Positions 16,619 to 56,810 of a stretch of DNA of 64,000 nt are shown one piece after another. Numbering within the stretch: the stretch's first letter is position 1; each line of letters begins with the position of its first letter. This DNA comes from Octopus vulgaris (Eukaryota): assembly GCA_951406725.2 (NCBI GenBank), contig OX597819.1, positions 117,366,001 to 117,430,000 of the forward strand, written 5' to 3'. Made by a program: the position numbers and the translations under genes. The notes beneath the pieces were generated by a model that searched no databases, was not told the origin of the DNA, and was given only the letters and a program-made list of their open reading frames with translations.

Positions 16619-17035
16619 GGCGGCGAGCTGGCAGAAACGTTAGCACGCCGGGAGAAATACTTAGCGGTACTTCGTCTGCCGTTACATTCTGAGTTCAAAT
16701 TCCGCCTAGGTCGACTGTGCGTTTCATCCTTTCGGGGTCGAAAAATTAAGTACCAGTTACGCACTGGGGTTGATGTAATCGACGTAATCCGTTTGTCTGT
16801 CCTTGTTTGTCTCCTCTGTTTTTAGCCCCTTGTGAATAGTAAAGAAATAGGTATTTCGTCTGTCGTTACGTTCTCAGTTCAAATTCCGCCGAGGCCGACA
16901 TTGCCTTTCATCCTTTCGGGGTCGAAAAATTAAGTAGCAGTTACGCACTAGGGTCGATATAATCGACCAAGTCCTTTTGTCTGTCCTTGTTTTTCCCCTC
17001 TGTGTTTAGCCCCTTGTGGGCAGTAAAGAAATAAG
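16619..17035 (+). mobile_element. SINE family A, tandem dimer
   Basis: Full unit followed by a second unit starting at gtatttcgtct; flanked by gaatt(t/a)gcaaacaaata direct repeats. Confidence 0.88.
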
Positions 17036-18781: not shown

Positions 18782-18878
18782 CCCAAATCTTTAGGACTAC
18801 ATAGCCACAGTAGGGGATGTAAAGGACATGAAATATATAAAAACCACACTTGATTATTTTATGCGCAGCTGCCAACAA

Positions 18879-18934
<56 letters not shown>

Positions 18935-18965
18935 ATTGTCTCCCGCGACAAAAGGGTGCCAACAA

Positions 18966-19062
<97 letters not shown>

Positions 19063-21570: not shown

Positions 21571-21988
21571 TTTCTTTACTACCCATAAGGGGCTAAACAC
21601 AGAGACGACAAGCAAGGACAGACAAACGGATTAAGTCGATTATATCGAACCCACTGCGTAACTGGTACTTATTTAACCGACCCCCGAAAGGATGAAAGGC
21701 AAAGTCGACCACGGCGGAATTTGAACTCAGAACGTAACGGCAGACGAAATACCTGTTTCTTTACTACCCACAAGGGACTAAACACAGAGAGGGACAAACA
21801 AGGACAGACAAACGGATTAAGTCAATTATATCGACTCCAGTGCGTAACTGCTACTTATTTAATCGACCCCGAAAGGATGAAAGGCAAAGTCGACCGCGGC
21901 GGAATTTGATCTCAGAACGTAGCGGCAGACGTAATACCGCTAAGCATTTCACCTGGCATGCTAACGTTTCTGCCAGGTCACCACCTTA
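21571..21988 (-). mobile_element. SINE family A, tandem dimer
   Basis: Two consecutive reverse-complement family A bodies sharing one head at the right end. Confidence 0.88.
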
Positions 21989-22514: not shown

Positions 22515-23395
22515 ATTTGTGATATATATGACAGTAAATAGTATATTCTAGAACACTTACAGCGGTGTAAATAATATCTAATGGATTGAATCATAAATTA
22601 TACGTGCTTTTCATTTGCCATCACAGTATGAAATCTTACTCCTTTATCCTAGGAAGACGCATATTTTATATTCCTAAATGACATCTTGTTTTTCTTTTGT
22701 GTTTTTATAAAAGCAGCACCTTCTAACACCTCTGTGAGTTATAATTTTTTAATTGATAACTTGGGGAAACCAATCCCAAAATGTATTTAGATAATGTTGA
22801 ATGTCAGGAATAACATTTGGAGTTCTGAACGACGCATGTAAGGTAACTAAATGTTTTTTCGTTGTGCCCAAAGCATTTAAAATTATTCTCATATATATGT
22901 AGTGGTTAAGTGTGTATCTGTATGTGTTAAGGTTAACAAATGCGACAGGCATGTGGATGCCTTTGAAGTAAACAAATACATGACATTGGTCCATAGTCAA
23001 AATAGTTTATTTAACGTACTCCCTTTACGGAGTTGATAAACTGATATACTAGTCCGTTCCCTCATCCTTGCTAACATTGTCTGAATGTTAGAAAGAATGG
23101 TAATTGCTACTCCAGCCTATATATATATGTCTATACATGTATATAGGAGTTTCCATGCACAAGTCTCTCCGTCAAGCATGTATGTAGCAATGGTGTTTCT
23201 CCTTAAGTATATGTGTCACAATGTGTATATCTCAGTGTGTTTGAATGTGTTTGAATATTTATATGTGTGCATTTGTATGTTTAGATTAATTCATTCATTC
23301 ATGCTTTCGTTCATTCATAGATACATACATTCATACATACATACATACATACATACATCAATACATTCATGAACTCAAATACGTTCTTACAAAGC

Positions 23396-23467
<72 letters not shown>

Positions 23468-24260
23468 TACATGCACACACATATTTATATGTGAAATATA
23501 TCATTACTCGTTCCTATTGTATGGCTTTCATCTTACGCAAAATAGACAATGACGGGCAGTACAACATTCACTTACTCCAGATAAGTATCGCCATGTCCCT
23601 TGTATATGTATTTGACAAATTATATTTTCCACCACATAAGCTCGAATGTCAAAGCAATTGAATCACCCCTATTTTAGAAATAACCGTTCAATCCTATGTA
23701 TCGTTAAATATGACGCAATTAGTTTCCTATTGTAATCTAGGAACAAATATGGAAAATAAAATATCCTTTATTCTTGTAAAATATTACCACTTAAATGCTT
23801 AATGTGCACATGATATTATTCCACTCTAAAATTTAAACAGGTATACATACAACCTTTCAAGGCGTATTAAAACATTCCCATTAAATATGATATTTATAGC
23901 ATCGCATTTTCATCTTAATTGTTGTCCAATAAGTAATCTCATAAACTGCAAATTTAATTTTAAGACTACACAGCTAAAACTTGCTTCATTCCTCTCTCTC
24001 TCTCTCTCTCTCCGTCTCTCTGTCTCTCTGCTTTCTCTCGCTCTCGCTCTGTATCTGAATATATATAATGGTTAAGGCAGATACAAGTCCCTAACGGGTA
24101 CCGTGCTTCCTCTAGTTGTTTAACAAGCCTGGCTACACTCCCTGAATGTAGATAAACTCCAGTTAGTTAAATTTACTACAGTCACTTCGCTTAATCCAGA
24201 TCTCCTCATAATGGCTGCATAGCGTCGGTAGGGAAGTAATCTCTATTCTCCTGATAGTTA

Positions 24261-24262
<2 letters not shown>

Positions 24263-24355
<93 letters not shown>

Positions 24356-24428
24356 GTATATATATATGTATATATGTATGTATATATATGTATATATATA
24401 TATTGTATATATATATGTATATATTATG

Positions 24429-24463
<35 letters not shown>

Positions 24464-24512
24464 GTATATATATATGTATATATGTATGTATATATATATA
24501 TATGTATATATG

Positions 24513-24596
<84 letters not shown>

Positions 24597-24614
24597 TATA
24601 TATATATATATGTA

Positions 24615-24687
<73 letters not shown>

Positions 24688-24696
24688 GTAAATATG

Positions 24697-24730
<34 letters not shown>

Positions 24731-24735
24731 TGTAT
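24263..24735. repeat. (TA)n/(TATG) tract, left flank of the PLE array
   Basis: Imperfect TA microsatellite directly abutting the array start ttggctgacc. Confidence 0.95.
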
Positions 24736-25786
24736 TTGGCTGACCGGTTCGCGGAACACCTTCGTGACATCCACCTTGCGAACGACACACCGGTCTCACG
24801 CCATTTCCGCTCCACCGGTCACTCCTTGCAACACCTATCTGTGTTCGGTTTGTCCTTACACAGAGGCCATCCGGATTCCCGTTTGCGCCGTGAACAGGAA
24901 TTAATCTTCTCTCTTCGCTCTTATACGCCATTTGGTCTCAACTCTCCCCCCCTCCTCATCTAACCCCCCTCTCCCCCCTCCTCACCTATCCTTTCTTCCC
25001 CCGACCCCTACTTCTACAGTCCTTCATCCTTTCACCCCTACTCCCCTTCCCTTCTTCCCTCTTTCTCCCTCCCTCTTCCCCTTCCCTCTGCTCCCTCACT
25101 CCCTCTCTCCCTCTTTCCTCCTTCATCCCCCTCCTCCCCTTCCTTCTCCCCCATCCTCTCCTCTTCCCCCTTCTCCTCCCCCTCTTCTTCCCCTCGCCTT
25201 CTCTCCCCCTCTTCTCCCCCTCCCCCTCTTCTCCTCACTACACCACATGACTTTACACATCACATCACATATGATGTGCCATACTAATACACACACCAAC
25301 TAATACATACTAATACGTACTAATACATACCAGTACATACTAATACTTACACCAACCCTATACATACACACGTCCAGACCCCGCATACGCACTTATACTC
25401 TCTCTCACACACACACACACACCTATACATACCAATACGTACTAATACATACTAATACATACTAATACATACACCAACCCCATACATACGCACGTCCAGA
25501 CCAATCTTACGCACTAATACTCTCTCATACACACACACACACACACACACCCTTATACATACTAATACATACACCAACCCTATACATACACACATCCAGA
25601 CCCCTCCCACGCACTTTTAGCTGGTCCCTCAACCCTTTTATCAACCCTATTATCTCCCCTTATTTCGCTCTCGCGTCTCATGTTTGATCTTTGACCTCTG
25701 GCCGAAATCAGATCGCCATGTTGATTCGTTAGCTACTGCACGCATTTTTTTCTCTCCTTCTTTCTGTGTTTTTCTCTCTCTGTGTA

Positions 25787-25824
25787 TCTTTCTGTTGAAG
25801 AGCGTAGGCTCGAAACGTTAAAGA
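25787..25824 (+). ncRNA. Minimal hammerhead ribozyme variant (unit 0 pLTR)
   Basis: ucuuu-CUGUUGA-a-gagc-guag-gcuc-GAAA-cg-UU-aaaga: stem I, core with A6U, 4-bp stem II, palindromic AACGUU stem III. Confidence 0.7.
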
Positions 25825-26529
25825 CTTGTTTTATTTATATTTCCTGAGCGCCATACTAATACAATTGTTCGTTTGTTTTCCACCTGCCTTCGTCTTTTGT
25901 TTATTTTCATAAAGCTTCCCGTTATATATTATGCGCTCACGTGGTCTCACTTTCATCCTATATTCTACCAATATCACTATCAACACTTACCTCTACCTTG
26001 GATTTTCTTTACCTCTTGGATACTTACCATTGGCTGCACCTCTCTTTCGCGGATCAAAGTGACTTTGCATTGATGTGAAATCCTTAAAAAATATACCACG
26101 ACGTCTACACATTTCTCACCTTGAACTTTCAACCTTGAACTTGTTCGCATAAACTGTCCCGTTTGTTGTATTTTTATTTTATCTTATATTACCACTTTTT
26201 TTACATTCATTTCATGCTTCCCACATTTTCCTGAATTTTTGTTCTCCTTTCCGTCTTTCTTCCCTCTCTGGATGTCCATACTCCGTTTCCTCTGCCTGCA
26301 CCCCCCTTTTTTTGCCTCCCTCTCTCTGCTTCCCTTCTTTCTTTCCCTTTTCCGTTTGCCCCGTCTTTTCTGCCCCTATCGCTTACTTATCTAGTTTTTT
26401 CTTACGATTATTATTTTTTTGTTTTTTTGAACGTTTGTTTTTTCCCCTTTTTCGCTATCCCCTTTTTTTCTATTTTTTTCATACGATAATTTTTTGTTTT
26501 TTCGAACGTTTTTTTTCCGCTATCCCATC

Positions 26530-29436
26530 ATGCCGGATCCTAGGTCCTACCTCCTCACCCTCCATCACCGTTTGAAGGATCATCTACGTTCGCTTCCTGT
26601 ATATTGCCTTCAGCCGTCCGTTAATCTCTCTCTACTTCTTTTTAAAAAACCCGCTTCTCTAGCCATGTCTCTTTCCTAAGCCGCTGCCTACATCACCGAC
26701 TCATCCCTAAAGGTTTCCGCCTCCACTTCCACCCTGCTCTCCACTCGGATTCTTCCATCTTACCCATACTCCGCACCACATCTTACCGCCTTATGCGGGC
26801 CACCATTCGCTCCAATCTCTCCAAACTACATGCCATCAACCGCCTTCTTCCTCCTGCTTTCTCCACCTTCTTCTCCTCTCTGCCGCCTCTCTATGCTCCA
26901 AACACGCTACGCTTCATTATCCATTTGAATCAACTCTTCCATCAATTTCTTTCTGATACCAAACTTCGTAAACTCCAATCACTCTTCCATTCCACCCTAC
27001 CCGACGCCACTACCCCAACTCCTCCACCACCCTTCTCCCCTCCCGATAGGCTCCATCCACCCACACCTAACCCCACTGCCCCTCCCTACAACCCCTTCTC
27101 CCCTCCCGTTAGGCTCCATCCACCTACACCTAACCCTACTGCCCCGCCCAACCACCCCCCACACACCTCCCCAATCCCTCCCCCTCAGACCTCCACGAGA
27201 CCTACCACCCCTCCTACTTCTATTCCACCCACCCCTTCTCCACTTCCGTCTGTTGTTACCATTCCCCCCGATCTTCCCCTCTCTGCGGCTGAACGCTCCG
27301 TCCTTGGTAGGGGTCTGCGTTTCATCCCCCTCACTCCATCCTGTAAGGAATTCCAGACGCGAGTTGATGTCCACAGCTTTGTGCGCCGTGTCCGGTTGGG
27401 TGCGCATTACCACGACTCGCCACCCACACCCAACGAAGAGGACGACTGCTTCACTGGCCTGGGCCGCCGACCATCCCCGTGGACGCCTGCTCCTGGCCAG
27501 ATCCTAGCAGTGGATCTTTTCGCGGGCGCTTGTCAGCGTGCATTGGAGCGGTTCAACTTCTCCAGGCGCCAACGCCGCCTCAACATCTCCCCGGCTGAGC
27601 TCTTGGCTCTTCGTTCCCTCCAACGGCGCGCTGACATTATCATCAAACCGGCTGACAAGGGTGGAGCTGTAGTGGTGTGGCGCGCGGACCTCTATAGGGC
27701 CGAGGCTTTCCGCCAACTCAATGACACCTCCTTCTATTCCCCTCTGCCCTCTAACCCCACACGTAGCTACCAACAGACGGTATCCTCTACTGTCCAAGAC
27801 CTCATCTCGTCCTCCCGTCTCCCCCGCACCGCATCCAACCTAATTGTGCGAACCCCACGTACCCCCACCATTTACTTCCTCCCCAAAATCCACAAACCCA
27901 ACAACCCTGGCCGCCCCATCGTCTCCGCCTGTAACTGCCCCACGGAGCTCATCTCTAAATACCTCGACCGTGTCCTTGCCCCCCTAGTGGCATCTCTTCC
28001 CTCCCACATCCACGATACCAACCATGCTCTCCGGCTTTTCAACTCTTTCTCCTTTCCTCCCGGCTCCTCCAAAATCCTTTTTACTATGGACATCCAAAGC
28101 CTCTATACTGTTATCCCTCACCACGAAGGACTGCAGGCCCTTCGACACTTTCTTGACCTCCGCTCTAACCCTGTACCTGACACCTCCACACTCATTCGTC
28201 TGGCCGAACTTGTCCTTACTCTGAACTGCTTCTCGTTCGCGGGCGAGTTCTACCATCAGGTCTCGGGAGTGGCCATGGGAACGCGAATGGGCCCCAACTA
28301 TGCGAACCTGTTCGTTGGCTATGTTGAGGCCCAAATATTCTCTAATTTCACTGGTCCCACTCCTGAACTATATGGTCGTTATATTGACGACATTATCGGT
28401 GCCACCTCACTCTCCCGCGAACATCTAGATTCCTTCCTCTCTTTCGTCCAATCTTTCCATCCAGCCCTCCACTTCACTTCCACTATCTCCAACACCTCTG
28501 TCTCCTTCCTCGACATTTCGGTTAGCATTCTTCACTCCACTCTTACCACCTCCATTCACTACAAACACACAGACTCACACTCATACCTCAACTTCTCTTC
28601 CTCCCACCCAGAACACACCAAGCTTTCCATCCCCTATTCCCAATTCCTCCGTCTACGTAGGCTCTGTAGTGACGACCATGACTTTGAGACTCAGTCTCAA
28701 CGTATGGCTCACCACTTCACCCTACGTGGATACCCCCTCACCACTATCCACACCGCCCTTGCCAGAGCACGGTCCGTGGACCGTGTATCTGCTCTCTCTC
28801 CCCGAACCCGCCCTGTAGTCTCCCGCCTCCCTTTTCCCCTCACTTACCACCCCACGACCCTACGTCTCCAACGCACCATTCTTCGAGCTTTCCGTCATCT
28901 CCAGTCCGACCCGTCCACTTCACACCTCTTCCCTAACCGACCCCTCCCCTCTTTCAAACGAGCCCACAACCTTCGAGACCTTTTGGTCCATAGCTCCTTC
29001 CCTGACCCTACCTCCCAACCCGGCTCGTTCCCCTGCTCCCGCCCACGTTGCCGCACTTGCCCTTACCTCTCCAACACCACCCGCCTCACTAGCACCCACC
29101 ATCGACCCTATCCCATCATCCACTCCTTCACCTGCACCTCCAGCAATATTATCTATTGCATCTCTTGCTCTCTCTGCAATTCCTTGTATATCGGACAAAC
29201 GGGACGCCGCTTGGCTGACCGGTTCGCGGAACACCTTCGTGACATCCACCTTGCGAACGACACACCGGTCTCACGCCATTTCCGCTCCACCGGTCACTCC
29301 TTGCAACACCTATCTGTGTTCGGTTTGTCCTTACACAGAGGCCATCCGGATTCCCGTTTGCGCCGTGAACAGGAATTAATCTTCTCTCTTCGCTCTTATA
29401 CGCCATTTGGTCTCAACTCTCCCCCTCCTCATCTAA
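26530..29436 (+). CDS. PLE polyprotein copy 1: reverse transcriptase plus GIY-YIG endonuclease (~969 aa after repairing homopolymer indels)
   Basis: IIKPADKGGAVVVW, LPKIHK, RPIVS, TMDIQSLYT, GVAMGTRMGPNYANLF, RYIDDI, Cys linker CSRPRCRTC, IIYCISCSLC..LYIGQTGR..RFAEH..HF..H..REQELI..PFGLN. One-base loss at T5A6 (~26645). The C-run at ~29421 is 2 bases shorter than in unit 0, where it gives GLNSPPLLI*. Confidence 0.93.
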
Positions 29437-30256
29437 CCCCCCTCTCCCCCCTCCTCACCTATCCTTTCTTCCCCCGACCCCTACTTCTACAGTCCTTCAT
29501 CCTTTCACCCCTACTCCCCTTCCCTTCTTCCCTCTTTCTCCCTCCCTCTTCCCCTTCCCTCTGCTCCCTCACTCCCTCTCTCCCTCTTTCCTCCTTCATC
29601 CCCCTCCTCCCCTTCCTTCTCCCCCATCCTCTCCTCTTCCCCCTTCTCCTCCCCCTCTTCTTCCCCTCGCCTTCTCTCCCCCTCTTCTCCCCTCCCTCTT
29701 CTCCTCACTACACCACATGACTTTACACATCACATCACATATGATGTGCCATACTAATACACACACCAACTAATACATACTAATACGTACTAATACATAC
29801 CAGTACATACTAATACTTACACCAACCCTATACATACACACGTCCAGACCCCGCATACGCACTTATACTCTCTCTCACACACACACACACACCTATACAT
29901 ACCAATACGTACTAATACATACTAATACATACTAATACATACACCAACCCCATACATACGCACGTCCAGACCAATCTTACGCACTAATACTCTCTCATAC
30001 ACACACACACACACACACACCCTTATACATACTAATACATACACCAACCCTATACATACACACATCCAGACCCCTCCCACGCACTTTTAGCTGGTCCCTC
30101 AACCCTTTTATCAACCCTATTATCTCCCCTTATTTCGCTCTCGCGTCTCATGTTTGATCTTTGACCTCTGGCCGAAATCAGATCGCCATGTTGATTCGTT
30201 AGCTACTGCACGCATTTTTTTCTCTCCTTCTTTCTGTGTTTTTCTCTCTCTGTGTA

Positions 30257-30294
30257 TCTTTCTGTTGAAGAGCGTAGGCTCGAAACGTTAAAGA
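30257..30294 (+). ncRNA. Minimal hammerhead ribozyme variant (unit 1)
   Basis: Identical to 25787-25824. Confidence 0.7.
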
Positions 30295-31001
30295 CTTGTT
30301 TTATTTATATTTCCTGAGCGCCATACTAATACAATTGTTCGTTTGTTTTCCACCTGCCTTCGTCTTTTGTTTATTTTCATAAAGCTTCCCGTTATATATT
30401 ATGCGCTCACGTGGTCTCACTTTCATCCTATATTCTACCAATATCACTATCAACACTTACCTCTACCTTGGATTTTCTTTACCTCTTGGATACTTACCAT
30501 TGGCTGCACCTCTCTTTCGCGGATCAAAGTGACTTTGCATTGATGTGAAATCCTTAAAAAATATACCACGACGTCTACACATTTCTCACCTTGAACTTTC
30601 AACCTTGAACTTGTTCGCATAAACTGTCCCGTTTGTTGTATTTTTATTTTATCTTATATTACCACTTTTTTTACATTCATTTCATGCTTCCCACATTTTC
30701 CTGAATTTTTGTTCTCCTTTCCGTCTTTCTTCCCTCTCTGGATGTCCATACTCCGTTTCCTCTGCCTGCACCCCCTTTTTTTGCCTCCCCCTCTCTCTGC
30801 TTCCCTTCTTTCTTTCCCTTTTCCGTTTGCCCCGTCTTTTCTGCCCCTATCGCTTACTTATCTAGTTTTTTCTTACGATTATTATTTTTTTGTTTTTTTG
30901 AACGTTTGTTTTTTCCCCTTTTTTCGCTATCCCCTTTTTTTCTATTTTTTTCATACGATAATTTTTTGTTTTTTCGAACGTTTTTTTTCCGCTATCCCAT
31001 C

Positions 31002-33908
31002 ATGCCGGATCCTAGGTCCTACCTCCTCACCCTCCATCACCGTTTGAAGGATCATCTACGTTCGCTTCCTGTATATTGCCTTCAGCCGTCCGTTAATCTC
31101 TCTCTACTTCTTTTTAAAAAAACCCGCTTCTCTAGCCATGTCTCTTTCCTAAGCCGCTGCCTACATCACCGACTCATCCCTAAAGGTTTCCGCCTCCACT
31201 TCCACCCTGCTCTCCACTCGGATTCTTCCATCTTACCCATACTCCGCACCACATCTTACCGCCTTATGCGGGCCACCATTCGCTCCAATCTCTCCAAACT
31301 ACATGCCATCAACCGCCTTCTTCCTCCTGCTTTCTCCACCTTCTTCTCCTCTCTGCCGCCTCTCTATGCTCCAAACACGCTACGCTTCATTATCCATTTG
31401 AATCAACTCTTCCATCAATTTCTTTCTGATACCAAACTTCGTAAACTCCAATCACTCTTCCATTCCACCCTACCCGACGCCACTACCCCAACTCCTCCAC
31501 CACCCTTCTCCCCTCCCGATAGGCTCCATCCACCCACACCTAACCCCACTGCCCCTCCCTACAACCCCTTCTCCCCTCCCGTTAGGCTCCATCCACCTAC
31601 ACCTAACCCTACTGCCCCGCCCAACCACCCCCCACACACCTCCCCAATCCCTCCCCCTCAGACCTCCACGAGACCTACCACCCCTCCTACTTCTATTCCA
31701 CCCACCCCTTCTCCACTTCCGTCTGTTGTTACCATTCCCCCCGATCTTCCCCTCTCTGCGGCTGAACGCTCCGTCCTTGGTAGGGGTCTGCGTTTCATCC
31801 CCCTCACTCCATCCTGTAAGGAATTCCAGACGCGAGTTGATGTCCACAGCTTTGTGCGCCGTGTCCGGTTGGGTGCGCATTACCACGACTCGCCACCCAC
31901 ACCCAACGAAGAGGACGACTGCTTCACTGGCCTGGGCCGCCGACCATCCCCGTGGACGCCTGCTCCTGGCCAGATCCTAGCAGTGGATCTTTTCGCGGGC
32001 GCTTGTCAGCGTGCATTGGAGCGGTTCAACTTCTCCAGGCGCCAACGCCGCCTCAACATCTCCCCGGCTGAGCTCTTGGCTCTTCGTTCCCTCCAACGGC
32101 GCGCTGACATTATCATCAAACCGGCTGACAAGGGTGGAGCTGTAGTGGTGTGGCGCGCGGACCTCTATAGGGCCGAGGCTTTCCGCCAACTCAATGACAC
32201 CTCCTTCTATTCCCCTCTGCCCTCTAACCCCACACGTAGCTACCAACAGACGGTATCCTCTACTGTCCAAGACCTCATCTCGTCCTCCCGTCTCCCCCGC
32301 ACCGCATCCAACCTAATTGTGCGAACCCCACGTACCCCCACCATTTACTTCCTCCCCAAAATCCACAAACCCAACAACCCTGGCCGCCCCATCGTCTCCG
32401 CCTGTAACTGCCCCACGGAGCTCATCTCTAAATACCTCGACCGTGTCCTTGCCCCCCTAGTGGCATCTCTTCCTCCCACATCCACGATACCAACCATGCT
32501 CTCCGGCTTTTCAACTCTTTCTCCTTTCCTCCCGGCTCCTCCAAAATCCTTTTTACTATGGACATCCAAAGCCTCTATACTGTTATCCCTCACCACGAAG
32601 GACTGCAGGCCCTTCGACACTTTCTTGACCTCCGCTCTAACCCTGTACCTGACACCTCCACACTCATTCGTCTGGCCGAACTTGTCCTTACTCTGAACTG
32701 CTTCTCGTTCGCGGGCGAGTTCTACCATCAGGTCTCGGGAGTGGCCATGGGAACGCGAATGGGCCCCAACTATGCGAACCTGTTCGTTGGCTATGTTGAG
32801 GCCCAAATATTCTCTAATTTCACTGGTCCCACTCCTGAACTATATGGTCGTTATATTGACGACATTATCGGTGCCACCTCACTCTCCCGCGAACATCTAG
32901 ATTCCTTCCTCTCTTTCGTCCAATCTTTCCATCCAGCCCTCCACTTCACTTCCACTATCTCCAACACCTCTGTCTCCTTCCTCGACATTTCGGTTAGCAT
33001 TCTTCACTCCACTCTTACCACCTCCATTCACTACAAACACACAGACTCACACTCATACCTCAACTTCTCTTCCTCCCACCCAGAACACACCAAGCTTTCC
33101 ATCCCCTATTCCCAATTCCTCCGTCTACGTAGGCTCTGTAGTGACGACCATGACTTTGAGACTCAGTCTCAACGTATGGCTCACCACTTCACCCTACGTG
33201 GATACCCCCTCACCACTATCCACACCGCCCTTGCCAGAGCACGGTCCGTGGACCGTGTATCTGCTCTCTCTCCCCGAACCCGCCCTGTAGTCTCCCGCCT
33301 CCCTTTTCCCCTCACTTACCACCCCACGACCCTACGTCTCCAACGCACCATTCTTCGAGCTTTCCGTCATCTCCAGTCCGACCCGTCCACTTCACACCTC
33401 TTCCCTAACCGACCCCTCCCCTCTTTCAAACGAGCCCACAACCTTCGAGACCTTTTGGTCCATAGCTCCTTCCCTGACCCTACCTCCCAACCCGGCTCGT
33501 TCCCCTGCTCCCGCCCACGTTGCCGCACTTGCCCTTACCTCTCCAACACCACCCGCCTCACTAGCACCCACCATCGACCCTATCCCATCATCCACTCCTT
33601 CACCTGCACCTCCAGCAATATTATCTATTGCATCTCTTGCTCTCTCTGCAATTCCTTGTATATCGGACAAACGGGACGCCGCTTGGCTGACCGGTTCGCG
33701 GAACACCTTCGTGACATCCACCTTGCGAACGACACACCGGTCTCACGCCATTTCCGCTCCACCGGTCACTCCTTGCAACACCTATCTGTGTTCGGTTTGT
33801 CCTTACACAGAGGCCATCCGGATTCCCGTTTGCGCCGTGAACAGGAATTAATCTTCTCTCTTCGCTCTTATACGCCATTTGGTCTCAACTCTCCCCCTCC
33901 TCATCTAA
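31002..33908 (+). CDS. PLE polyprotein copy 2 (RT plus GIY-YIG)
   Basis: N-terminus MPDPRSY...FKKTRFSSHVSFLSRCLHHRLIPKGFRL is in frame here; a single C loss at ~32472 splits it into ORFs 30906-32696 and 32558-34195. Confidence 0.92.
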
Positions 33909-34733
33909 CCCCCCTCTCCCCCTCCTCACCTATCCTTTCTTCCCCCGACCCCTACTTCTACAGTCCTTCATCCTTTCACCCCTACTCCCCTTCCCTTCTT
34001 CCCTCTTTCTCCCTCCCTCTTCCCCTTCCCTCTGCTCCCTCACTCCCTCTCTCCCTCTTTCCTCCTTCATCCCCCTCCTCCCCTTCCTTCTCCCCCATCC
34101 TCTCCTCTTCCCCCCTTCTCCTCCCCCTCTTCTTCCCCTCGCCTTCTCTCCCCCTCTTCTCCCCCTCCCCCTCTTCTCCTCACTACACCACATGACTTTA
34201 CACATCACATCACATATGATGTGCCATACTAATACACACACCAACTAATACATACTAATACGTACTAATACATACCAGTACATACTAATACTTACACCAA
34301 CCCTATACATACACACGTCCAGACCCCGCATACGCACTTATACTCTCTCTCACACACACACACACACCTATACATACCAATACGTACTAATACATACTAA
34401 TACATACTAATACATACACCAACCCCATACATACGCACGTCCAGACCAATCTTACGCACTAATACTCTCTCATACACACACACACACACACACACACCCT
34501 ATACATACTAATACATACACCAACCCTATACATACACACATCCAGACCCCTCCCACGCACTTTTAGCTGGTCCCTCAACCCTTTTATCAACCCTATTATC
34601 TCCCCTTATTTCGCTCTCGCGTCTCATGTTTGATCTTTGACCTCTGGCCGAAATCAGATCGCCATGTTGATTCGTTAGCTACTGCACGCATTTTTTTTCT
34701 CTCCTTCTTTCTGTGTTTTTCTCTCTCTGTGTA

Positions 34734-34771
34734 TCTTTCTGTTGAAGAGCGTAGGCTCGAAACGTTAAAGA
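34734..34771 (+). ncRNA. Minimal hammerhead ribozyme variant (unit 2)
   Basis: Identical to 25787-25824. Confidence 0.7.
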
Positions 34772-35479
34772 CTTGTTTTATTTATATTTCCTGAGCGCCA
34801 TACTAATACAATTGTTCGTTTGTTTTCCACCTGCCTTCGTCTTTTGTTTATTTTCATAAAGCTTCCCGTTATATATTATGCGCTCACGTGGTCTCACTTT
34901 CATCCTATATTCTACCAATATCACTATCAACACTTACCTCTACCTTGGATTTTCTTTACCTCTTGGATACTTACCATTGGCTGCACCTCTCTTTCGCGGA
35001 TCAAAGTGACTTTGCATTGATGTGAAATCCTTAAAAAATATACCACGACGTCTACACATTTCTCACCTTGAACTTTCAACCTTGAACTTGTTCGCATAAA
35101 CTGTCCCGTTTGTTGTATTTTTATTTTATCTTATATTACCACTTTTTTTACATTCATTTCATGCTTCCCACATTTTCCTGAATTTTTGTTCTCCTTTCCG
35201 TCTTTCTTCCCTCTCTGGATGTCCATACTCCGTTTCCTCTGCCTGCACCCCCCTTTTTTTGCCTCCCCCTCTCTCTGCTTCCCTTCTTTCTTTCCCTTTT
35301 CCGTTTGCCCCGTCTTTTCTGCCCCTATCGCTTACTTATCTAGTTTTTTCTTACGATTATTATTTTTTTGTTTTTTTGAACGTTTGTTTTTTCCCCTTTT
35401 TTCGCTATCCCCTTTTTTTCTATTTTTTTCATACGATAATTTTTTGTTTTTTCGAACGTTTTTTTTCCGCTATCCCATC

Positions 35480-38386
35480 ATGCCGGATCCTAGGTCCTAC
35501 CTCCTCACCCTCCATCACCGTTTGAAGGATCATCTACGTTCGCTTCCTGTATATTGCCTTCAGCCGTCCGTTAATCTCTCTCTACTTCTTTTAAAAAAAC
35601 CCGCTTCTCTAGCCATGTCTCTTTCCTAAGCCGCTGCCTACATCACCGACTCATCCCTAAAGGTTTCCGCCTCCACTTCCACCCTGCTCTCCACTCGGAT
35701 TCTTCCATCTTACCCATACTCCGCACCACATCTTACCGCCTTATGCGGGCCACCATTCGCTCCAATCTCTCCAAACTACATGCCATCAACCGCCTTCTTC
35801 CTCCTGCTTTCTCCACCTTCTTCTCCTCTCTGCCGCCTCTCTATGCTCCAAACACGCTACGCTTCATTATCCATTTGAATCAACTCTTCCATCAATTTCT
35901 TTCTGATACCAAACTTCGTAAACTCCAATCACTCTTCCATTCCACCCTACCCGACGCCACTACCCCAACTCCTCCACCACCCTTCTCCCCTCCCGATAGG
36001 CTCCATCCACCCACACCTAACCCCACTGCCCCTCCCTACAACCCCTTCTCCCCTCCCGTTAGGCTCCATCCACCTACACCTAACCCTACTGCCCCGCCCA
36101 ACCACCCCCCACACACCTCCCCAATCCCTCCCCCTCAGACCTCCACGAGACCTACCACCCCTCCTACTTCTATTCCACCCACCCCTTCTCCACTTCCGTC
36201 TGTTGTTACCATTCCCCCCGATCTTCCCCTCTCTGCGGCTGAACGCTCCGTCCTTGGTAGGGGTCTGCGTTTCATCCCCCTCACTCCATCCTGTAAGGAA
36301 TTCCAGACGCGAGTTGATGTCCACAGCTTTGTGCGCCGTGTCCGGTTGGGTGCGCATTACCACGACTCGCCACCCACACCCAACGAAGAGGACGACTGCT
36401 TCACTGGCCTGGGCCGCCGACCATCCCCGTGGACGCCTGCTCCTGGCCAGATCCTAGCAGTGGATCTTTTCGCGGGCGCTTGTCAGCGTGCATTGGAGCG
36501 GTTCAACTTCTCCAGGCGCCAACGCCGCCTCAACATCTCCCCGGCTGAGCTCTTGGCTCTTCGTTCCCTCCAACGGCGCGCTGACATTATCATCAAACCG
36601 GCTGACAAGGGTGGAGCTGTAGTGGTGTGGCGCGCGGACCTCTATAGGGCCGAGGCTTTCCGCCAACTCAATGACACCTCCTTCTATTCCCCTCTGCCCT
36701 CTAACCCCACACGTAGCTACCAACAGACGGTATCCTCTACTGTCCAAGACCTCATCTCGTCCTCCCGTCTCCCCCGCACCGCATCCAACCTAATTGTGCG
36801 AACCCCACGTACCCCCACCATTTACTTCCTCCCCAAAATCCACAAACCCAACAACCCTGGCCGCCCCATCGTCTCCGCCTGTAACTGCCCCACGGAGCTC
36901 ATCTCTAAATACCTCGACCGTGTCCTTGCCCCCCTAGTGGCATCTCTTCCCTCCCACATCCACGATACCAACCATGCTCTCCGGCTTTTCAACTCTTTCT
37001 CCTTTCCTCCCGGCTCCTCCAAAATCCTTTTTACTATGGACATCCAAAGCCTCTATACTGTTATCCCTCACCACGAAGGACTGCAGGCCCTTCGACACTT
37101 TCTTGACCTCCGCTCTAACCCTGTATCTGACACCTCCACACTCATTCGTCTGGCCGAACTTGTCCTTACTCTGAACTGCTTCTCGTTCGCGGGCGAGTTC
37201 TACCATCAGGTCTCGGGAGTGGCCATGGGAACGCGAATGGGCCCCAACTATGCGAACCTGTTCGTTGGCTATGTTGAGGCCCAAATATTCTCTAATTTCA
37301 CTGGTCCCACTCCTGAACTATATGGTCGTTATATTGACGACATTATCGGTGCCACCTCACTCTCCCGCGAACATCTAGATTCCTTCCTCTCTTTCGTCCA
37401 ATCTTTCCATCCAGCCCTCCACTTCACTTCCACTATCTCCAACACCTCTGTCTCCTTCCTCGACATTTCGGTTAGCATTCTTCACTCCACTCTTACCACC
37501 TCCATTTACTACAAACACACAGACTCACACTCATACCTCAACTTCTCTTCCTCCCACCCAGAACACACCAAGCTTTCCATCCCCTATTCCCAATTCCTCC
37601 GTCTACGTAGGCTCTGTAGTGACGACCATGACTTTGAGACTCAGTCTCAACGTATGGCTCACCACTTCACCCTACGTGGATACCCCCTCACCACTATCCA
37701 CACCGCCCTTGCCAGAGCACGGTCCGTGGACCGTGTATCTGCTCTCTCTCCCCGAACCCGCCCTGTAGTCTCCCGCCTCCCTTTTCCCCTCACTTACCAC
37801 CCCACGACCCTACGTCTCCAACGCACCATTCTTCGAGCTTTCCGTCATCTCCAGTCCGACCCGTCCACTTCACACCTCTTCCCTAACCGACCCCTCCCCT
37901 CTTTCAAACGAGCCCACAACCTTCGAGACCTTTTGGTCCATACTCCTTCCCTGACCCTACCTCCCAACCCGGCTCGTTCCCCTGCTCCCGCCCACGTTGC
38001 CGCACTTGCCCTTACCTCTCCAACACCACCCGCCTCACTAGCACCCACCATCGACCCTATCCCATCATCCACTCCTTCACCTGCACCTCCAGCAATATTA
38101 TCTATTGCATCTCTTGCTCTCTCTGCAATTCCTTGTATATCGGACAAACGGGACGCCGCTTGGCTGACCGGTTCGCGGAACACCTTCGTGACATCCACCT
38201 TGCGAACGACACACCGGTCTCACGCCATTTCCGCTCCACCGGTCACTCCTTGCAACACCTATCTGTGTTCGGTTTGTCCTTACACAGAGGCCATCCGGAT
38301 TCCCGTTTGCGCCGTGAACAGGAATTAATCTTCTCTCTTCGCTCTTATACGCCATTTGGTCTCAACTCTCCCCCCTCCTCATCTAA
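35480..38386 (+). CDS. PLE polyprotein copy 3 (RT plus GIY-YIG)
   Basis: Same protein; one-base losses at ~35590 (T4A7) and ~37943 (catactcc vs catagctcc); P>S and H>Y substitutions. Confidence 0.9.
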
Positions 38387-39210
38387 CCCCCTCTCCCCCC
38401 TCCTCACCTATCCTTTCTTCCCCCGACCCCTACTTCTACAGTCCTTCATCCTTTCACCCCTACTCCCCTTCCCTTCTTCCCTCTTTCTCCCTCCCTCTTC
38501 CCCTTCCCTCTGCTCCCTCACTCCCTCTCTCCCTCTTTCCTCCTTCATCCCCCTCCTCCCCTTCCTTCTCCCCCATCTTCTCCTCTTCCCCCTTCTCCTC
38601 CCCCTCTTCTTCCCCTCGCCTCTCTCCCCCTCTTCTCCCCCTCCCCCTCTTCTCCTCACTACACCACATGACTTTACACATCACATCACATATGATGTGC
38701 CATACTAATACACACACCAACTAATACATACTAATACGTACTAATACATACCAGTACATACTAATACTTACACCAACCCTATACATACACACGTCCAGAC
38801 CCCGCATACGCACTTATACTCTCTCTCACACACACACACACACCTATACATACCAATACGTACTAATACATACTAATACATACTAATACATACACCAACC
38901 CCATACATACGCACGTCCAGACCAATCTTACGCACTAATACTCTCTCATACACACACACACACACACACACACCCTTATACATACTAATACATACACCAA
39001 CCCTATACATACACACATCCAGACCCCTCCCACGCACTTTTAGCTGGTCCCTCAACCCTTTTATCAACCCTATTATCTCCCCTTATTTCGCTCTCGCGTC
39101 TCATGTTTGATCTTTGACCTCTGGCCGAAATCAGATCGCCATGTTGATTCGTTAGCTACTGCACGCATTTTTTTTCTCTCCTTCTTTCTGTGTTTTTCTC
39201 TCTCTGTGTA

Positions 39211-39248
39211 TCTTTCTGTTGAAGAGCGTAGGCTCGAAACGTTAAAGA
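39211..39248 (+). ncRNA. Minimal hammerhead ribozyme variant (unit 3)
   Basis: Identical to 25787-25824. Confidence 0.7.
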
Positions 39249-39348
39249 CTTGTTTTATTTATATTTCCTGAGCGCCATACTAATACAATTGTTCGTTTGT
39301 TTTCCACCTGCCTTCGTCTTTTGTTTATTTTCATAAAGCTTCCCGTTA

Positions 39349-40222
<874 letters not shown>

Positions 40223-46127: not shown

Positions 46128-47040
46128 ACAGACCTGGTAGAAACAGCAGCCAAATCTCCCTCAAATCACACCTTACTGTCTTATGTATGTATATATATAT
46201 ATGAGCCAATGAGGGGGACCTCTACTTGGTAGCTAGACCTGGTAGAAATAGCAGCCAAATTTCCCCCAAATCACACCTTACTGTCTTATCTATGTATATA
46301 TGTATGTATGAGCCTATGAGGGAGACCCCTACATGGCAGCTAGACCTGGTAGATATAGCAGCCAAATTTCCCCCAAATCACACCTTACTGTCTTATCTAT
46401 GTATATATGTATGTATGAGCCTATGAGGGAGACCCCTACATGGAAGCTAGACCTGGTAGAAATAGCAGCCAAATTTCCCCCAAATCACACCTTACTGTCT
46501 TATCTATGTATATATGTATGTATGAGCCTATGAGGGAGACCCCTACATGGCAGCTAGACCTGGTAGATATAGCAGCCAAATTTCCCCCAAATCACACCTT
46601 ACTGTCTTATCTATGTATATATGTATGTATGAGCCTATGAGGGAGACCCCTACATGGAAGCTAGACCTGGTAGAAATAGCAGCCAAATTTCCCCCAAATC
46701 ACACCTTACTGTCTTATCTATGTATATATGTATGTATGAGCCTATGAGGGAGACCCCTACATGGCAGCTAGACCTGGTAGAAATAGCAGCCAAATTTCCC
46801 CCAAATCACACCTTACTGTCTTATCTATGTATATATGTATGTATGAGCCTATGAGGGAGACCCCTACATGGCAGCTAGACCTGGTAGAAATAGCAGCCAA
46901 ATTTCCCCCAAATCACACCTTACTGTCTTATCTATGTATATATGTATGTATGAACCTATGAGGGAGACCCCTACATGGCAGCTAGACATGGTAGAAATAG
47001 CAGCCAAATCTCCCTCAAATCACACCTTACTGTCTTATCT
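46128..47040 (+). repeat. 107-bp minisatellite, ~8.5 copies
   Basis: Unit gagcctatgagggagacccctacatggcagctagacctggtagaaatagcagccaaatttcccccaaatcacaccttactgtcttatct...; ORF starts recur every 107 bp. Confidence 0.96.
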
Positions 47041-56014: not shown

Positions 56015-56810
56015 CTTTTCTACTCTAAGCACAAGGCCCGAAATTTTTTTAGGGAAGGAGGCCAGTCGATTAGATCGTCCCCAGTACGCAACTGATATTA
56101 ATTTATCGACACCAAAGGATGACAAGCATAGTCTACCTCAGCGGAATTTGAAATCAGAACGTAGCGACAGACGAAATACCTATTTCTTTACTACCCACAA
56201 GGGGCTAAGCACAGAGGAGACAATCGAGGACAGACAAACGGATTAAGTCGATTACATCGACCCCAGTGCGTAACTGGTACTTAATTTATCGACCCCGAAA
56301 GGATGAAAGGCAAAGTCGACCTCGGCGAAATACCAGACGAATTACCTATTTCTTTATTACCCACAAGGGGCTGAACAAAGAGGGGACAAACATGGAGAGA
56401 CATAGGTATTAAGTCGATTATATCGACCCCAGTGCTTAACTGGTACTTAATTTATCGACCCCGAAAGGATGAAAGGTAAAGTCGACCTCGGCGGAATTTG
56501 AACTCACAACGTAACGGCAGACGAAATACCGCTAAGCATTTCGCCCGGCGTGCTAACGTTTGACAGCTAACAGCCTTAGACCGATATTCTTTTCTACTCT
56601 AGGCACAAGGCCCGCAATTTTTTCGGTGGGGGTGGGGAACCAGTCGATTAGATCAACACCAGTACACAACTGGTACTTAATTTATAGACCAGGAAAGGAT
56701 GAATTGAAAAGTCAACCTCGGTGGAATTTGAACTCAGAACATAAAGACAGACGAAATACCGCTAAGGATTTCGCCTGGCGTGCTAATATTTCTGCCTGAT
56801 CGCCGCCTTA
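56015..56810 (-). mobile_element. Cluster of SINE family A copies (multimer plus adjacent variant)
   Basis: At least four reverse-complement family A cores in series. Confidence 0.85.

Follow-up and report, generated by a model that had tools for sequence, protein, structure and literature searches.

The analysed stretch of 64,000 nucleotides (the window) is microsatellite-rich animal DNA whose named best protein matches come from snails, sea urchin, and coral; its dispersed repeats may resemble those of octopus. At positions 24736–39349 it contains a head-to-tail array of a Penelope-like element (PLE) comprising one partial and three full units, together 3.27 units of 4470–4477 bp, which are more than 99.5% identical (Table 1). 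Between units, 1–4 substitutions and 10–13 gap columns are found. The partial unit of 1187 bp lies ahead of the three full units, and thus the partial tandem forming a pLTR is present. The substitutions private to unit 3 (equivalents of positions 28176, 28557, and 29629) are all C>T on the sense strand. Every unit carries a 122-bp tandem repeat in the 3′ UTR (25289–25572 in the window) and, within the reading frame, a proline-rich tandem repeat of 63 bp (27030–27158 in the window). Further copies of the array family were not detected in the 64-kb window by blastn, tblastn, or a scan for hammerhead motifs. Other repeats of the window are a 107-bp minisatellite with 8.5 copies (46130–47040) and a SINE-like repeat of ∼185 bp that is dispersed and occurs in either orientation (16666–17033, 21571–21938, and 56168–56497). 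ARAGORN predicted no genes, and a scan for sigma-70 promoters was discarded as meaningless for an animal locus.

Table 1. Features of the PLE array and of its flanks (positions in the window).
Feature	Position	Strand	Remarks
Left copy of unique 15-mer	24244..24258	+	candidate target-site duplication
Left TA(TG) tract	24264..24735	+	interruption pattern common to far-right tract; junction 11-mer at 24418
5′-truncated unit (pLTR)	24736..25922	+	1187 bp; end of GIY-YIG, 3′ UTR, hammerhead-like motif
Minimal hammerhead-like motif	25787..25824	+	5-bp stem I, 4-bp stem II, GAAA; predicted cut after 25819
Full unit 1	25923..30392	+	4470 bp
Junction TA run, copy 1	25923..25929	+	TATATAT
Reading frame of unit 1, RT and C-terminal GIY-YIG	26646..29720	+	Pfam matches and motifs
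Full unit 2	30393..34869	+	4477 bp
Junction TA run, copy 2	30393..30399	+	identical
Full unit 3	34870..39346	+	4477 bp; three private C>T changes
Junction TA run, copy 3	34870..34876	+	identical
True 3′ junction	39347..39353	+	2-nt overlap, G, then TA repeat; 6/7 match to internal run
TA-rich segment between element end and right 15-mer	39350..39514	+	
Right copy of unique 15-mer	39515..39529	+	
Far-right TA tract	39535..40221	+	starts with the rare 10-mer of the element 3′ junction

The reading frame of unit 1 codes for a PLE-type reverse transcriptase (RVT_1, E=1.3e-7) with the motifs DKG at 27642 and YIDD near 28380, followed by a C-terminal GIY-YIG domain near 29150. The Pfam match of the latter (E=0.0069) is below its cut-off, and the motif as well as the CxxC and the two histidines (CCHH) were read directly. 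Upstream of the GIY-YIG domain a CX2-5CxxC linker is present as CSRPRCRTC at 29034 (CX4CxxC); according to the portion of PMC8557442 available to us, this linker is common to Neptune, Nematis, and Naiad elements. The RT motifs closely match the Neptune1_Ap rows in the available supplement of that study, a match judged by eye and not on a reference-labelled tree. One of three query peptides matched solely the Neptune1_Ap row of the available supplement and two matched nothing. Starting from the first ATG none of the three units is open through RT and endonuclease; the frame is interrupted by 1-nt indels, which fall for the most part in homopolymer runs and could be assembly noise. Judged from its sequence, the element is endonuclease-bearing (EN+) and probably a Neptune-type PLE.

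The core of the hammerhead-like motif (25792–25819 in the first copy) starts again at 30262, 34739, and 39216. Stems I and II and the GAAA are present in all four pLTR copies, and all four have a U at core position 6, which we take to be the position of the conserved A6. An Rfam search of the region 23000–31000 gave 33 weak matches, nearly all of them located in simple repeats, and no hammerhead family. In the family of the related loci L001, L002, L004, and L005 (see below) position 4 of the core is a C.

The three internal junctions (25923, 30393, and 34870) read identically cccgt-TATATAT-tatgcgctc, and the last unit passes at 39347 into TA-rich DNA. The array ends at an internal site of the unit, 103–106 nt beyond the predicted hammerhead-like cut, and the TA run starts 104 nt after this cut. 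TATATAT is the only alternating TA run of at least 6 nt in the 4470-bp unit: a perfect alternating 7-mer occurs at 1 of 4470 positions, and the same position alone is within one mismatch of the flank 7-mer. The preliminary description was right about the likeness of the junctions and the internal 3′ end, and probably about the Neptune type of the element. Such a run arises somewhere in the unit in 16% of 500 dinucleotide shuffles, whereas the chance of finding it at a fixed position is ∼3e-4 given the local composition. The place of the run at the 3′ end is beyond chance; its mere existence in the unit is unremarkable.

This low chance also argues against the view that the run is an AT-rich accident with which the 3′ end merely coincides. 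Alternatively, the run could be a TATA-like promoter element, as promoters of PLEs lie at the boundary between pLTR and body (PMC8557442, available portion). In fact, a 7-mer resembling an initiator, whose A is position 25949, follows 26 nt downstream of the run; however, initiator-like matches occur at 1.9% of the unit positions. Moreover, the distance is below the usual spacing of 30–31 nt between TATA element and initiator. We consider a promoter element or an accident, either of which would make the 3′ end a coincidence, hardly likely.

As the units are near-identical, the three junctions are one junction that has been copied and are not independent observations (n = 1). We propose that this junction was multiplied via read-through RNA, circular RNA, or later recombination; circular RNA has been proposed as an intermediate of PLEs (PMC4209133, available portion). 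Because the units were copied from one junction, a comparison of the TA length among the tandems, which the preliminary description had named as a refuting test, is powerless. The evidence base for the array family is therefore one junction and one insertion, and the idea of a guide and the idea of a leftover target both predict a TA run at the 3′ end.

At the level of RNA, the run is predicted to be mostly unpaired (0.6–0.95). The bases flanking the run can pair and would bulge it out (+0.3 kcal/mol, ∼11% per pair), a helix noticed post hoc and likewise possible in 29/583 to 39/1284 random downstream sequences. No stable RNA structure was found at the start site (z = 0.31 and 1.54). When inspected by eye, a similar terminal AAA-CTT-CCC-TT motif is seen at the 3′ ends of the array unit (25904–25923) and of L002 (∼2190–2211); this motif could be where a protein binds to mark the start site.

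At 39347 the last unit reads cccgt-TA-G-ATATATATG and enters the TA-rich tract 39350–40221. The contiguous identity with the internal motif comprises 2 nt, and the match of 6/7 includes the G (base 3) as a mismatch. On either strand of the 64 kb, the 10-mer at the start of the flank has no occurrences other than those at 39347 and 39535 and, because it recurs at 39535, the G looks host-derived rather than misincorporated. An initiation error of the RT as the source of the G is accordingly disfavoured, since the same 10-mer begins the host tract at 39535. For the RNA:DNA hybrid we calculated −1.4 kcal/mol for a perfect 7-bp duplex and +0.7 kcal/mol for 4 bp; a short hybrid of this kind could serve as a protein-held snap. 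In 49,390 host bases, 1526 of 1696 alternating 7-mers belong to long TA runs or lie no more than 60 bp away from one, and therefore a TA guide would reach microsatellites by mass action.

Related elements were sought in genome contigs with 29 aligned proteins as queries (that of the window and 28 of the 120 matches listed). Ten loci (L001–L010) were found; these appear to be contigs with eukaryote-type PLEs within bacterial genome records, six of them from one record, and are likely host contamination. Usable 3′ ends are available for six of the ten loci, and L006, L008, L009, and L010, which have no mappable 3′ end, were left out. In a family of 56–61% identity, L002, L005, and an inverted piece in L004 end 126–128 nt past the hammerhead GAAA (three of four copies). 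These ends lie in non-microsatellite DNA and have no TA run, the internal junction being outside the view. The fourth copy, L001, ends early, ∼25 nt past the GAAA, which counts against a strictly fixed end. In L003 (∼50% identical) the internal junction and an inverted end diverge 65 nt past the GAAA; this junction shows neither a TA run nor homology to the flank, and a 6-nt TA stretch follows ∼19 nt further on in what reads as flank. Within 300 nt after the hammerhead of L010 there are no TA runs of at least 6 nt. In L007 two Neptune-like copies end at the identical base into TA (their junction is outside the view), and two inverted Hydra-like pieces start at one internal site without TA, and yet both abut TA tracts. 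In addition, eight hammerhead-like sites of L007 and L001 are followed by TA runs 11–40 nt in length, beyond which a further element often begins. These ends lead us to conclude that fixed ends need no TA run, that such a run is no prerequisite for entry into TA targets, and that TA scraps between neighbouring elements are common, within the limits that the 56–61% family and L003 do not target TA and that the Hydra-like family of L007 belongs to a different clade.

Two of these loci have further peculiarities. In the part 1–11072 of L007, no fewer than four PLE families associated with TA, Neptune-like and Hydra-like ones, form a nest that includes inverted 5′ pieces, and by eye one of its hammerheads matches the published Hydra-2_aMil motif. 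L006 (1–9954) contains a PLE tandem with a period of 6150 bp and telomere-like CCCTAA-rich stretches in the 3′ region.

The preliminary description had gone further and suggested that the run acts as a guide: the UAUAUAU of the RNA would anneal to the nicked (TA)n and in this way determine the 3′ end as well as the target. The coincidence in position (1 of 4470) and the predicted accessibility of the run would suit a guide, as would the internal target-complementary stretch that the Terminons use beside the ribozyme (PMC6431247, available portion) and the TATATA that can be seen by eye at some of the published Naiad consensus ends or starts available to us. On the contrary, the only insertion of the family has the mismatch at base 3 and 2 contiguous nt, the hybrid is marginal, and the nick must come before any pairing. 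Furthermore, the relatives have fixed ends that lack the TA run, one TA-abutting family starts without TA, and the PAc element needs no homology (PMC11167929). Several (TA)n-preferring Naiad consensi, among those available, also have no TA run of at least 6 nt at their ends; here the cut points were chosen by the curators, and we therefore rejected the published consensus ends as ambiguous for a test of internal TA. Thus, the claim that the TA run dictates where the element ends and which target it enters is unsupported, and we regard a true guide as unlikely.

The flanks of the array offer a different perspective. A 15-mer occurs at 24244 and 39515 and nowhere else in the window; between the two copies lie the left TA tract, the array, and a TA-rich segment of 168 bp, and the left copy has unique DNA leftward, the right copy rightward. 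The bases following the 15-mer differ between the copies. Either the 15-mer predates the array insertion, or it is the target-site duplication of this insertion and the nick was made away from the microsatellite. A putative 12-bp target-site duplication inside the tracts (24724–24735 and 39350–39361) is uninformative, as 33% of 5000 random tract pairs reach at least 12. In the available part of the published Naiad, Chlamys, and Hydra consensi an 11-nt piece of the 15-mer had no match at any end in either orientation, in files whose FASTA line breaks could mask one. Among 91 control cut points at other places, 14 also share complex 13-mers across 1 kb, most of them at the tandem and dispersed repeats listed.

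If the 15-mer is the duplication, priming would have occurred outside the microsatellite, the inner TA tracts would have come with the element, either from a (UA)n tail of a read-through RNA or through slippage while the adjacent host tract was copied, and the run would have played little or no part. Besides the duplication geometry of the 15-mer, the left and the far-right tract have four identical interruption tokens in a run (P=0.011, 5000 shuffles), and the rare 10-mer of the flank start is found again at 39535. Moreover, among 32 TA tracts two pairs repeat the unique upstream flank, namely 24244/39515 and 18870/18957. However, the duplication may be older with the element landing in the first tract, and the near-right TA segment matches neither of the other two tracts (P=1.0 and 0.80). 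The pair 18870/18957 holds a short insert only, and hence such duplications can arise without a large element; in addition, TA tracts are error-prone in assembly. On balance, priming outside the microsatellite appears improbable to us. At 18870–19059 a unique 11-mer and a TA tract are duplicated around a short insert with a small inverted repeat; the arrangement may have been left behind when a very short piece inserted at the edge of a tract.

The same tracts could in principle have been made in part by the element, if the RT copied the UAUAUAU repeatedly onto the nick in a telomerase-like fashion. The RTs of PLEs are sister to TERT (PMC8557442, available portion), both inner tracts are within the 15-mer duplication, and, apart from the three junctions, the 11-mer that spans the run has a single further occurrence, in the left tract (24418). 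This single 11-mer is of low complexity, however, and TG makes up most of the interruptions of the tracts, just as it does in other TA tracts of the window. Repeat addition is also not described for PAc in the main text of PMC11167929. We thus judge repeat addition very improbable, and we are similarly doubtful of the wider model in which an EN+ PLE carries its own TA template, pairs with the nick, and adds TA, so that the flanking tracts would be partly element-made inside a 15-bp target-site duplication.

We suggest instead that the protein of the element sets the start of reverse transcription, that the endonuclease nicks TA-rich DNA, and that TATATAT is a captured scrap of an old target inherited by all units. 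To this explanation we give about an even chance. The array, the hammerhead-like motif, and a 3′ end on a TA run 103–106 nt past the predicted cut are observed. As judged from the PAc biochemistry and the relatives, the binding of a protein past the ribozyme would fix the start site, and the GIY-YIG domain together with the CX2-5CxxC linker would account for the TA preference, as the literature implies. A full-length copy may then have become attached, over a few TA bases, to an earlier copy at its 3′ end and thereby have created a master locus, from which read-through or circular RNA would have spread this single junction to all units. The template was presumably an uncut read-through or circular RNA, because a cut monomer would carry the run 104 nt from its 5′ end. 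Finally, a pairing of 2–6 nt of UA could possibly steady the primer; the captured run may add at most such a short priming snap.

The explanation by a captured scrap is in agreement with the single independent junction, the 2 contiguous nt, the apparently host-derived G, and the weak hybrid. The relatives have fixed ends without TA, the Hydra-like pieces entered TA from a start without TA, and the spacers of the type element-TA-element (11–40 nt) in L007 and L001 show how target scraps can be captured. It also conforms to the homology-free start of PAc (PMC11167929) and the linker hypothesis (PMC8557442, available portion). Nevertheless, the array ends on the sole long TA run in 4470 bp with a match of 6/7, which capture explains but selection does too, and a TA guide would reach microsatellites by mass action. 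Weak pairing can matter, as L1 (PMC3649969) and R2Ol (PMC6530143) illustrate in the portions available, and the run is predicted to be mostly unpaired although a weak bulging helix is possible. Furthermore, TA is not the target of the close relatives devoid of a guide, the relative that abuts TA comes from another clade, and the capture itself would be a step unseen in the array's own family. Overall, we regard the array as an ordinary element; the TA-run feature is real, the first interpretation of it was over-read, and the run is more likely the ordinary footprint of nesting in TA tracts.

As a young TA-associated element with a target-mimicking start, the array is a clean substrate for the question whether RNA pairing or the endonuclease directs insertion. 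If pairing were true, EN+ elements would be linked to the Terminons and to telomerase, and insertion would be retargetable. If the telomerase-style model were true, the element would not only look for microsatellites but also make them, and a change of seven bases would retarget it.

How PLEs find microsatellites is stated as an open question in the available portion of PMC8557442. The same portion reports a (TA)n preference for many Naiads and nearly all Hydras and, citing Arkhipova 2006, proposes the CX2-5CxxC linker as the cause of the microsatellite bias of Neptune elements. Naiad and Hydra elements resemble the array in their (TA)n insertion and hidden target-site duplications; in contrast, they are of other clades (with an N-terminal endonuclease or a short reading frame), and their bias is ascribed to protein motifs. 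Elements of the Neptune1_Ap type share with the array the RT with C-terminal GIY-YIG, the DKG, the CX4CxxC, the CCHH, the partial tandem forming a pLTR, and the microsatellite neighbourhood. The array differs from the described Neptune elements in its 3.27 units, in the U6 of its hammerhead-like core, and in the target-like run at the junction. For such a run in Neptune elements no description was found in the literature searched, nor for an internal microsatellite guide in EN+ PLEs, the search covering subscription journals thinly; the available portion of PMC12602865 has no bearing on the TA run.

The Poseidon element PAc from Anolis is the only PLE system reconstituted in vitro, and it initiates without homology (PMC11167929). 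Its ribozyme cleavage is dispensable in vitro, and according to the main text its reverse transcription starts internally, 85–92 nt past the ribozyme cut, at a site with no homology to the cut DNA. Thus, the premise of the preliminary description that PLEs initiate internally on the RNA holds for the internal start but gains nothing for homology to the target. Like the array, PAc has a 3′ end at an internal site ∼85–105 nt past the ribozyme cut and AT-rich targets, and the end geometry of the array and its relatives fits a fixed internal start past the ribozyme, the array family being represented by one copy. Unlike the array, which starts at a target-like site and has no tail, PAc has a non-homologous start and a 30–40-bp tail, which is optional in PMC8557442 as well as in PMC11167929; the last unit of the array follows the internal sequence for just 2 nt beyond the junction.

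Outside the PLEs, a few nucleotides of RNA:DNA pairing aid priming after the nick in L1, which primes on 4 matched nt in a snap-velcro manner (PMC3649969, available portion), and in R2Ol, where 4 nt of target sequence in a read-through RNA help (PMC6530143, available portion). In these systems, in contrast to the array, the pairing is at or near the RNA's 3′ end, and the endonuclease still makes the nick. In the Terminons, telomeric repeats directly follow the ribozyme and are proposed to pair with overhangs (PMC6431247, available portion). The Terminon/Athena elements thus share with the array a short target-matching stretch inside the element near the ribozyme; however, they are endonuclease-deficient and attach to telomeres, whereas the array has a GIY-YIG domain, lies at an internal site, and carries its run 104 nt past the predicted cut. 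The Terminons are the nearest precedent for a pairing between RNA and target.
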